Assembly: GCF_048403405.1 (NCBI RefSeq) | Contig: NZ_CP183129.1 | Strand: one strand, 5' to 3' | From: Escherichia coli | GTDB lineage: Bacteria; Pseudomonadota; Gammaproteobacteria; Enterobacterales; Enterobacteriaceae | DNA: 64,000 bases | In this document: positions 30,645-60,563 of the stretch, piece after piece | Layout: the number at the start of each line of letters is the position of its first letter | Position numbering within the stretch: the stretch's first letter is position 1 | Notes under the pieces: generated by a model | Databases searched by the model: none | What the model was told of the DNA's origin: nothing | The model's input: only the letters and a program-made list of their open reading frames with translations | Program-made: the position numbers and the translations under genes

Positions 30645-30653
30645 ACACAGTAT

Positions 30654-30690
30654 GGCCCGGAAGACATTATTTCGGGCCGTATTGTTTTTC
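30654..30690 (+). terminator. lysC terminator
   Basis: A 9-bp stem forms between GGCCCGGAA (30654-62) and TTTCGGGCC (30670-78), followed by GTATTGTTTTT. Confidence 0.6.
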
Positions 30691-60159: not shown

Positions 60160-60241
60160 CCCTGAATTTCAGGATTTTTCTCTTCAACCGAACCGGCTGT
60201 TTGTGTGAAGTGATTCACATCCGCCGTGTCGATGGAGGCGC

Positions 60242-60290
60242 ATTATAGGGAGTTCTCCGCAGGCCGCAATAGAAAAATTGCAGAAAAATG
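60242..60290 (-). promoter_or_regulatory. rrn P1 promoter with an A/T-rich UP element
   Basis: The minus strand has a -35 TTGCGG (60264-60269) and a -10 TATAAT (60242-60247) with a 16-bp spacer. A GC-rich discriminator GCGCC follows -10, and an A/T-rich UP-like stretch lies at 60271-60290. Confidence 0.8.
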
Positions 60291-60440
60291 ACTGACTGCT
60301 GCATTCCCCAGCAAAACCCCGCTTTATACCTTTTTACGCACAGAGTTATCCACAATCATCAATGTAATTTCTGTATTTTTCCCACGGTAAACACTGTCAA
60401 AATTGTGATCACCATTGAAAGAGAAAAATTCGCGAGCGTT

Positions 60441-60456
60441 GCGCAAACGTTTTCGT
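60441..60456 (+). promoter_or_regulatory. PurR operator of purHD
   Basis: GCGCAAACGTTTTCGT compares with the PUR box consensus ACGCAAACGTTTTCNT. It lies 108 nt upstream of the purH ATG. Confidence 0.8.
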
Positions 60457-60563
60457 TACAATGCGGGCGAAAAATAAGGATGCCCCGTTAGGGGCGTTAG
60501 CTGAGTTTTTCGCGAAAAATTCAGCTAACGCTCTCTGTAATAGTCAAATCCAGGGGATTTACC

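Follow-up and report, generated by a model that had tools for sequence, protein, structure and literature searches.

What is a 38-nucleotide (nt), nearly perfect palindrome doing between the PurR operator of the purHD operon and the purH start codon? The palindrome lies in a 64,000-nt stretch of the Escherichia coli contig NZ_CP183129.1 (assembly GCF_048403405.1), referred to here as the window, and the region corresponds to the purH-rrsE intergenic stretch of this species. In K-12 (NC_000913.3) purH occupies 4205943-4207532 on the minus strand and rrsE begins at 4208147 on the plus strand, and the K-12 RefSeq record holds no annotated features between the two genes. A preliminary description had noted the palindrome together with a small adjacent GC hairpin, and had offered roles that ranged from a functional leader RNA to a site for a dimeric protein or a barrier towards the rrnE promoters. 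The analysis presented here indicates that the palindrome very probably encodes a stem-loop within the 5' leader of the purHD messenger RNA (mRNA), kept by selection acting on the sense RNA.

Structure and conservation of the long helix

The core palindrome is located at 60494-60531 (plus strand). Its arms, 60494-60512 and 60513-60531, are 19 nt each and 95% complementary with a spacer of 0 nt, forming 18 Watson-Crick pairs and one G60505-T60520 wobble around a centre that is A/T-rich in E. coli; sequence reading and a repeat finder both reproduced the arms as first described. As RNA, the helix reaches 3 base pairs (bp) below the palindrome (G60491.U60534, G60492-C60533 and G60493.U60532), and the extended element, termed HP2, is predicted to consist of 20 bp and a CGCG loop at 60491-60534 (plus strand) with the base GGGGCGUUAG/CUAACGCUCU. 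The energy of this fold was -27.7 kcal/mol (z = -7.7), with 0 of 200 shuffles folding equally well. HP2 was the longest uninterrupted stem of the window, covering 22 palindrome positions when G-T was allowed, and in 40 sequences of 64 kb simulated with a first-order Markov model the stems reached 15 at most. The length of the stem far exceeds chance. Other uninterrupted stems of at least 13 bp in the window were found only at 10692-10721 (15 bp), 30647-30685 (16 bp) and 3272-3301 (13 bp); those at 10692-10721 and 3272-3301 are flanked by an A-run and a T-run and resemble bidirectional terminators.

Leaders for comparison were taken from the purH loci of 80 GTDB species and from 120 metagenome contigs carrying the PurR-box/-10 pattern, giving a total of 113 distinct purH leaders from Enterobacteriaceae, Erwiniaceae, Yersiniaceae and Lonsdalea. 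Fifty Enterobacteriaceae leaders were readily aligned, and a covariance model built from this alignment was used to align the more distant ones, yielding 91 distinct full-length rows. Within the 50 Enterobacteriaceae leaders HP2 was 98% paired, so the palindrome is kept in close relatives, where its absence would have spoken against a function. Its sequence was almost frozen in this set save for G.U transitions and the pair 60501/60524, the sole HP2 position tolerating mismatches, which was seen as C-G, G-C, A-U or mismatch. When no structure was supplied, RNAalifold recovered the extended HP2 and a second hairpin at the Shine-Dalgarno sequence.

Across families the lower 10-11 bp of the helix keep their sequence and the middle covaries. 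Among the 91 rows, which come from at least four families, double changes were seen at pairs 50/133 (GC 61, CG 26), 56/127 (UA 67, GC 21) and 57/126 (UA 62, CG 11, UG 10, AU 3), and pair 55/128 was GU in 45, AU in 22 and GC in 21. The element was then reduced to its lower 17 bp with the tops replaced by GAAA, which left 45 distinct variants, 91.9% paired and with double changes at 5 pairs. The covariation score of these variants, whose rows descend from an alignment fitted by the covariance model, was 0.240 compared with 0.111 for column shuffles, and 0 of 500 shuffles equalled it; slid registers scored at most 0.055 and were 29-46% paired. The comparison of purH leaders that the preliminary description had proposed thus uncovered compensatory pairs above both shuffled and slid controls, as is expected of a structured cis-acting RNA. 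Duplex energy was -23 to -29 kcal/mol in all families retaining the helix, and the apex ranged from a 4-nt loop to an insert of about 60 nt between the conserved arms. The conserved module is therefore a basal helix, GGGGCGUUAS/SUAACGCUCU, with a covarying middle and an apex free to vary. It is followed by a 3' flank, UCUCUGUAAUAGUC (60532-60545, plus strand), which is conserved in the leaders and whose first 3 nt pair with the G-run at the helix base; U140, C141 and U142 of the alignment were found in 88/91, 91/91 and 87/91 leaders, respectively.

In Erwiniaceae and Yersiniaceae the base GGGGCGUUAC...GUAACGCUCU bears an irregular hairpin of 70-95 nt, within which an apical YUCUAUAUAGAR stem-loop is conserved. 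This apical module consists of a pyrimidine stem, a UAUAUA loop and a purine stem, for example CUUCUAUAUAGAAG (L019, L022-L024, L026, L029, L087, L097 and others). Tatumella keeps the TCTATATATA stretch and has no TAACGCTCT base. A long hairpin of different sequence is still present in Photorhabdus, Xenorhabdus, Sodalis and Symbiopectobacterium. Long stable hairpins were also observed in the purH leaders of Vibrio, Aliivibrio, Aeromonas, Ferrimonas and Photobacterium (L039, L040, L047-L049, L056), several with the base GGGUAUUUC/GAAAUNCCC; their sequence is unrelated to enterobacterial HP2, they had no Rfam match, and there was no ribosomal RNA (rRNA) gene within 1.5 kb.

The strength of selection was gauged by mean pairwise identity among 47 Enterobacteriaceae. 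The HP2 arms gave 0.92 and 0.90, compared with 0.59 for the four-fold degenerate sites of purH. In the remainder of the leader the apical loop had the lowest value, 0.35; the 20 columns at the start of the leader reached 0.64 and the small hairpin 0.74, and identity was highest 3' of the helix, at 0.885 for the flank and 0.976 for the hairpin at the Shine-Dalgarno sequence. Within E. coli, a 221-nt query matched 5419 of 5426 complete genomes at a single locus beside purH, and the 98-nt leader was at least 99% identical in 5330 of the 5419. The longer query, which includes promoter-proximal upstream sequence, was less conserved, with 216 genomes at only 90-95% identity. The hairpin region 60482-60534 was identical in K-12 (4207562-4207614). 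No further copies and no regulon were found in these 5419 genomes, each having one locus; a second place reported by the distant-mode search was the palindrome matching itself on the opposite strand. Two leaders from other genera were close to that of the window: L003 (CP170191.1, 'Enterobacter hormaechei B56') had the E. coli leader and L001 ('Pseudocitrobacter vendiensis') differed only 5' of the hairpins, and in both the first 212 PurH residues were 100% identical to those of the window. These may be mislabelled or contaminated assemblies, or may reflect recent transfer.

Whether the selected object is RNA or DNA was addressed through the substitutions in the helix. Among 88 distinct rows the non-Watson-Crick helix cells comprised 102 G.U and 11 A.C, and this asymmetry argues for selection on the sense RNA and not on a DNA palindrome. 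Selection on a DNA palindrome or on an antisense RNA should have left the reverse bias, or no bias at all. Folding energy pointed in the same direction, being -27.7 kcal/mol for the sense and -19.6 kcal/mol for the antisense strand, about 8 kcal/mol in favour of the former. Taken with the variable spacing of the arms, the G.U bias and the better sense fold are the grounds for the sense-RNA reading. Covariation, the sense-strand bias and purifying selection uphold the functional structure first suggested, and its transcription depends on the predicted start site described below.

An element acting at the level of DNA, be it an operator for a dimeric protein, a cruciform absorbing supercoils or an insulator between rrnE P1/P2 and purH, would suit the perfect, zero-spacer palindrome of E. 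coli with its A/T-rich centre, and the adjacency to rrn that appears to recur in Klebsiella, Pantoea, Serratia and Lonsdalea. We consider it most improbable. G.U cells some nine times commoner than A.C make no sense for duplex DNA, and basal arms lying anywhere from 4 to about 60 nt apart are incompatible with a dimeric operator or a cruciform. An operator is expected to have fixed half-site spacing and strand-symmetric conservation; neither was found, and the earlier proposal of a dimeric-protein site is contradicted by the spacing and the strand-asymmetric substitutions. Conservation is lowest at the apex, where the centre of a cruciform would lie. Besides PurR, only DnaA has been shown to bind the intergenic region, at 60334-60355, about 140 bp away. 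As for the barrier, nothing links the element to rrnE: it is downstream of the purH promoter and about 260-300 bp from rrnE P1.

The purHD promoter, the leader and its smaller hairpins

The PurR operator (pur box) of purHD, GCGCAAACGTTTTCGT, is located at 60441-60456 and is the reverse complement of the purHD site ACGAAAACGTTTGCGC identified by chromatin immunoprecipitation on microarrays (PMC3159470), in agreement with the position first given for it. PurR sites generally lie between the -35 and -10 elements (PMC3159470). In 38 of 38 Enterobacterales species retrieved by PurH similarity the box directly abuts a putative -10 hexamer, TACAAT at 60457-60462 (plus strand) in the window and kept as TA(C/A)AAT, which sequence and conservation support. 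The -35 element is weak, and a consensus promoter scan missed this promoter. Transcription would start at 60469-60471 (plus strand), 7-9 nt downstream of TACAAT; no mapped purH start was found in the accessible supplementary tables of Mendoza-Vargas 2009, Kim 2012, Conway 2014 and Ettwiller 2016. Given a start near 60469-60471, both hairpins would be inside a leader of about 95 nt, with HP2 beginning about 22-23 nt past the start and ending 30-33 nt ahead of the purH AUG. HP2 is called transcribed here on the basis of this promoter geometry and of its RNA-type covariation, the start being a predicted one. The purH start codon itself (60564-60566, plus strand) stands as first placed, since the translation from it matches PurH and the K-12 annotation concurs.

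The small GC hairpin, HP1 (GCCCC-GUUA-GGGGC, 60482-60495, plus strand), shares 60494-60495 with the palindrome and competes with the base of HP2. It is present as the preliminary description had it, but alone it was not significant (-10 kcal/mol, z = -2.4), being equalled by 11 of 200 shuffles, and it was absent from the RNAalifold consensus. In the 50 Enterobacteriaceae leaders 84% of its cells were paired with zero double changes. Its pairs invariably had C in the 5' strand and G in the 3' strand, never the reverse. Its mean pairing probability in the full-leader ensemble was 0.19, and in Klebsiella and Enterobacter a C.U mismatch is predicted to prevent it from forming. The mutual exclusivity of the two hairpins is real and wider than the shared two nucleotides that had been reported, as the G-run 60491-60494 can pair with either the CCCC of HP1 or the CUCU of the HP2 base. 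In E. coli the two states were calculated at -29.7 and -28.9 kcal/mol, and they were within 2 kcal/mol of each other in 55 of 89 leaders. The invariant orientation of the HP1 pairs is as expected if the G-run has two partners; no covariation was seen for either alternative pairing.

A further hairpin, AAAUCC-AGG-GGAUUU (60546-60560, plus strand), carries the Shine-Dalgarno G-run and was recognised by comparison. All 6 of its 6 pairs were invariant in the 50 Enterobacteriaceae leaders, and it is absent from Erwiniaceae and Yersiniaceae leaders, where it is replaced by CCAAGGGAUAAAACC. A relay in which a freed C-run would mask the Shine-Dalgarno sequence was rejected, the complementarity being no better than that of shuffles (RNAduplex, 200 shuffles); mean z for the C-segment was -0.73 in the short Enterobacteriaceae-like leaders, 0.04 in the long, mostly Erwiniaceae and Yersiniaceae, leaders and 0.15 in others. 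On the minus strand, HP1 (60495-60482) followed by ATCCTTATTT scores as terminator-like; an antisense terminator was dropped as the T-run is missing in Klebsiella and Pantoea. A 9-mer shared with 16S rRNA (AGCUAACGC) was also dropped, about 0.25 such matches being expected by chance. Three other candidates in the leader were rejected: an internal promoter TGTAAT at 60536-60541, which lacks the essential A at position 2; a leader peptide from the ATG at 60480, which would read MPR-stop and is not conserved; and a 14-codon antisense open reading frame, which had no support in the sequence.

Several observations concern the surroundings of the promoter. The discriminator at 60463-60469 is G+C-rich (GCGGGCG), and those of other genera are GC-rich too (GCCGCGC, GCTCGCG). 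Discriminators of this kind are a common feature of promoters on which guanosine tetraphosphate (ppGpp) and DksA exert negative stringent control. At 60334-60355, about 115 bp upstream of the predicted purH start, tTTACGCACAgagTTATCCACAa contains a 7/9 DnaA box and a perfect DnaA box 3 bp apart, conserved in many Enterobacteriaceae. The Rfam family 'Ysr197' (Yersinia small RNA 197) matches, under its gathering score and on the strand opposite to purH, the rrn leader at 60202-60261 (minus strand) and the sequence upstream of purH in L005, L019, L026 and L030, of which L019 has an adjoining 16S rRNA gene. Together the sequences suggest that Ysr197 corresponds to rrn leader sequence, and that purH and rrn stand divergently in Klebsiella, Pantoea, Serratia and Lonsdalea as well.

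Proposed function of the helix

With regard to function, we tentatively favour, at less than even confidence, a reading in which HP2 is a cis-acting, post-transcriptional determinant of purHD mRNA fate that operates independently of PurR. Provided that it folds in the cell as predicted, the stable duplex might hinder RNase E from attacking the A/U-rich leader by its 5'-end-dependent route, or HP2 might be an entry site for the double-strand-specific RNase III. By either nuclease route it would set the lifetime, and hence the output, of the purH-purD message. HP1 would act as a weaker alternative partner of the G-run; it may be the earlier structure to fold as the RNA is made, and later give way.

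This reading is favoured because of the size of the helix, its place in a 5' untranslated region (UTR), where RNase III sites are enriched, the half-life of the message and the lack of terminator, operator or aptamer features. About two turns of duplex are roughly what RNase III needs. The 20 bp of E. coli reach the size expected of a substrate, at least 20 bp or about two turns of mostly regular double-stranded RNA. The enrichment in 5' UTRs is documented (PMC6212723), and the half-life of purH mRNA in the wild type, 9.97 min (Potts 2017), is fairly long.

A number of points weigh against a role in mRNA fate. The part of the Gordon 2017 data that was available (PMC5371410) lists no RNase III cleavage at 4207562-4207614, the only site there being 4207874 in the rrsE leader. 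The median length of the longest uninterrupted run was 16 bp for Enterobacteriaceae (range 7-20) and only 9 bp for Erwiniaceae and Yersiniaceae, and a perfect two-turn helix was rejected as a requirement in all taxa. The long hairpin is absent in Pasteurellaceae and in three 75-nt leaders (L131, L171, L179). With the predicted start, the hairpins would begin at about +12 (HP1) and +22 (HP2), off the extreme 5' end. Finally, a barrier or stabiliser needs neither a near-invariant basal sequence nor a 3' leader half that is 0.89-0.98 identical; judged from sequence, the invariant base and 3' half suggest a better fit to recognition by a specific factor.

The main rival takes up this last point. 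HP2 would be a docking site or switch for a trans-acting factor, either an RNA-binding protein or a small RNA, and a signal would toggle the G-run between CCCC and CUCU and so alter translation or decay. We regard this as possible but rather unlikely. It would account for the basal 10-11 bp and UCU flank that are near-invariant across families where the apex diverges, for the 0.89-0.98 identity of the leader's 3' half against 0.59 at four-fold sites, and for the apical YUCUAUAUAGAR hairpin kept in Erwiniaceae and Yersiniaceae. The fixed C(5')-G(3') pairs of HP1 fit dual pairing of the G-run with CCCC and CUCU, and the near-equal energies in 55 of 89 leaders are in keeping with a switch. A 2026 preprint reports PurH among the RNA-associated proteins it recovered, which is a lead only. 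However, neither alternative pairing covaries, HP1 is predicted not to form in Klebsiella and Enterobacter owing to the C.U mismatch, and complementarity between the upstream segment and the Shine-Dalgarno sequence is nothing beyond base composition. The element is also single-copy with no hint of a regulon.

CsrA was considered as such a protein, binding GGA at 60477-60480 and the Shine-Dalgarno hairpin, with HP2 bringing the two sites together; we judge this very unlikely. Motifs of the CsrA type are present, AAGGAUG at 60476-60482 just 5' of HP1 and GGGGAU at the Shine-Dalgarno sequence, and a ACAAGGAUG-like motif occurs in most Enterobacteriaceae leaders (A14, G17, A18 and G20 in at least 90%), but several genera (L002, L012, L020, L086, L103, L134) no longer have the 5' GGA. 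In the csrA mutant the purH half-life fell from 9.97 to 4.91 min and abundance changed by -0.57 log2 (Potts 2017), a drop of about two-fold that is similar to that of many unrelated mRNAs in the same table. Furthermore, purH is marked 'No' for crosslinking and immunoprecipitation sequencing and has a non-significant translation efficiency log fold change of 0.04 (Potts 2017 Supplementary Data 2), and it is missing from three other CsrA target lists of that dataset.

Equally little credence is given to an antitermination signal, in which CGCUCU at and after the 3' base of HP2 would be a boxA that recruits NusB/NusE together with a boxB-like hairpin. GCUCU is near-invariant, an rrn operon adjoins the gene, and Serratia/Rahnella-type leaders read GCTCTTTA and Pantoea CGCTCTTA, as in the lambda boxA. 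The boxA consensus is GYTCTTTAANA, and the double change C4T/T6C abolishes function of the suhB boxA (PMC5725501). The sequence of E. coli, like that of all Enterobacteriaceae, is GCTCTCTGTAA, with departures from the consensus at positions 6, 8 and 9; the Serratia form departs from it too, at positions 9 and 11. The GC and UCU of the motif are moreover base-paired in the predicted helix, whereas a boxA must be single-stranded.

A riboswitch for a metabolite, either a purine or 5-aminoimidazole-4-carboxamide ribonucleotide (ZMP) and its triphosphate (ZTP), could stand in for the ZTP riboswitch of other phyla and would suit the gene context and a strongly conserved leader outside known families, but is scarcely credible given an uninterrupted 20-bp helix in E. 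coli without internal loop or junction for a pocket, a hypervariable apex, and a lone 1x1 mismatch position that is paired in E. coli. An intrinsic terminator or attenuator was rejected, as neither hairpin was called by the terminator scan on the plus strand and the sequence after HP2, CTCTCTGTAAT, lacks a U-run, which bears out the preliminary description on this point; attenuation is further disfavoured because the tables of Adams 2021 contain no purH-leader 3' end. A repetitive extragenic palindromic (REP) or bacterial interspersed mosaic element (BIME) was likewise rejected because each of the 5419 E. coli genomes had a single locus. The element was rightly said not to be REP-like, given also its lone position in a 5' leader and its unrelated sequence.

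Novelty, significance and comparison with known systems

The element is unannotated in K-12 RefSeq and in Rfam, and its kind, a 5'-UTR stem-loop, is a familiar one. A search of the window against Rfam 15 in E-value mode gave mir-725 as the only overlap, whose 23.8 bits fall short of the gathering score of 76, and the leaders of Klebsiella, Pantoea, Serratia, Rahnella, Photorhabdus, Lonsdalea, Vibrio, Aliivibrio, Aeromonas, Ferrimonas and Photobacterium had no Rfam match. Literature searches of retrievable papers found no published description of a purHD leader hairpin. The purHD operon is a textbook case of regulation by PurR, yet about 70 nt of its leader are more conserved than its synonymous sites. 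If the helix governs decay or processing of the message, a post-transcriptional layer would be added to purine and ZMP homeostasis, and the design of purH reporter fusions and of purine- or histidine-producing strains would be affected. If it should prove to have no measurable effect, the conservation itself would need explaining.

A bolder proposal, which we think improbable, is that the Enterobacterales purHD leader is an unrecognised regulatory RNA, with a factor or ligand that reads the base and flank and a G-run that switches. Were this so, PurH, which consumes ZMP, would be under a second, post-transcriptional and PurR-independent control in a lineage lacking the ZTP riboswitch, and the purH-leader hairpins of Vibrio, Aeromonas and Ferrimonas could be analogues.

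Comparison with known systems places the element as follows. The ZTP (pfl) riboswitch of other bacteria is alike in its cis position in purH leaders, but it is a pseudoknotted aptamer of two subdomains whereas the purH element is a plain helix with no Rfam match. REP and BIME elements are also intergenic imperfect palindromes without a U-tail; they differ from the purH element in that the latter is single-copy, is located in a 5' leader and not between convergent or co-directional gene ends, and has an unrelated sequence. The boxB-boxA arrangement of rrn leaders, lambda nut and suhB resembles it in having a hairpin followed by GCUCU, here neighbouring rrnE, but the purH sequence fails the consensus at critical positions and is predicted to be partly base-paired. 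Stabilisers of the ompA type have a hairpin within a few nucleotides of the 5' end and need no conserved stem sequence. Like HP2, they are stable cis-acting hairpins that stand between the mRNA 5' end and the coding sequence and lack a terminator tail, whereas the purH hairpins would be preceded by about 12 (HP1) and 22 (HP2) nt of A-rich single strand, given the predicted start. The RNase III leader hairpins of the rnc, pnp, adhE, proU and betT class differ from HP2 in that the latter has no rnc-dependent cleavage listed in the data available and a two-turn helix that is unconserved outside Escherichia-like genera. Like HP2, however, they have a long regular duplex in the 5' UTR that lies upstream of, and apart from, the ribosome-binding site, and the 20 bp of the E. 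coli purHD leader fit this class.

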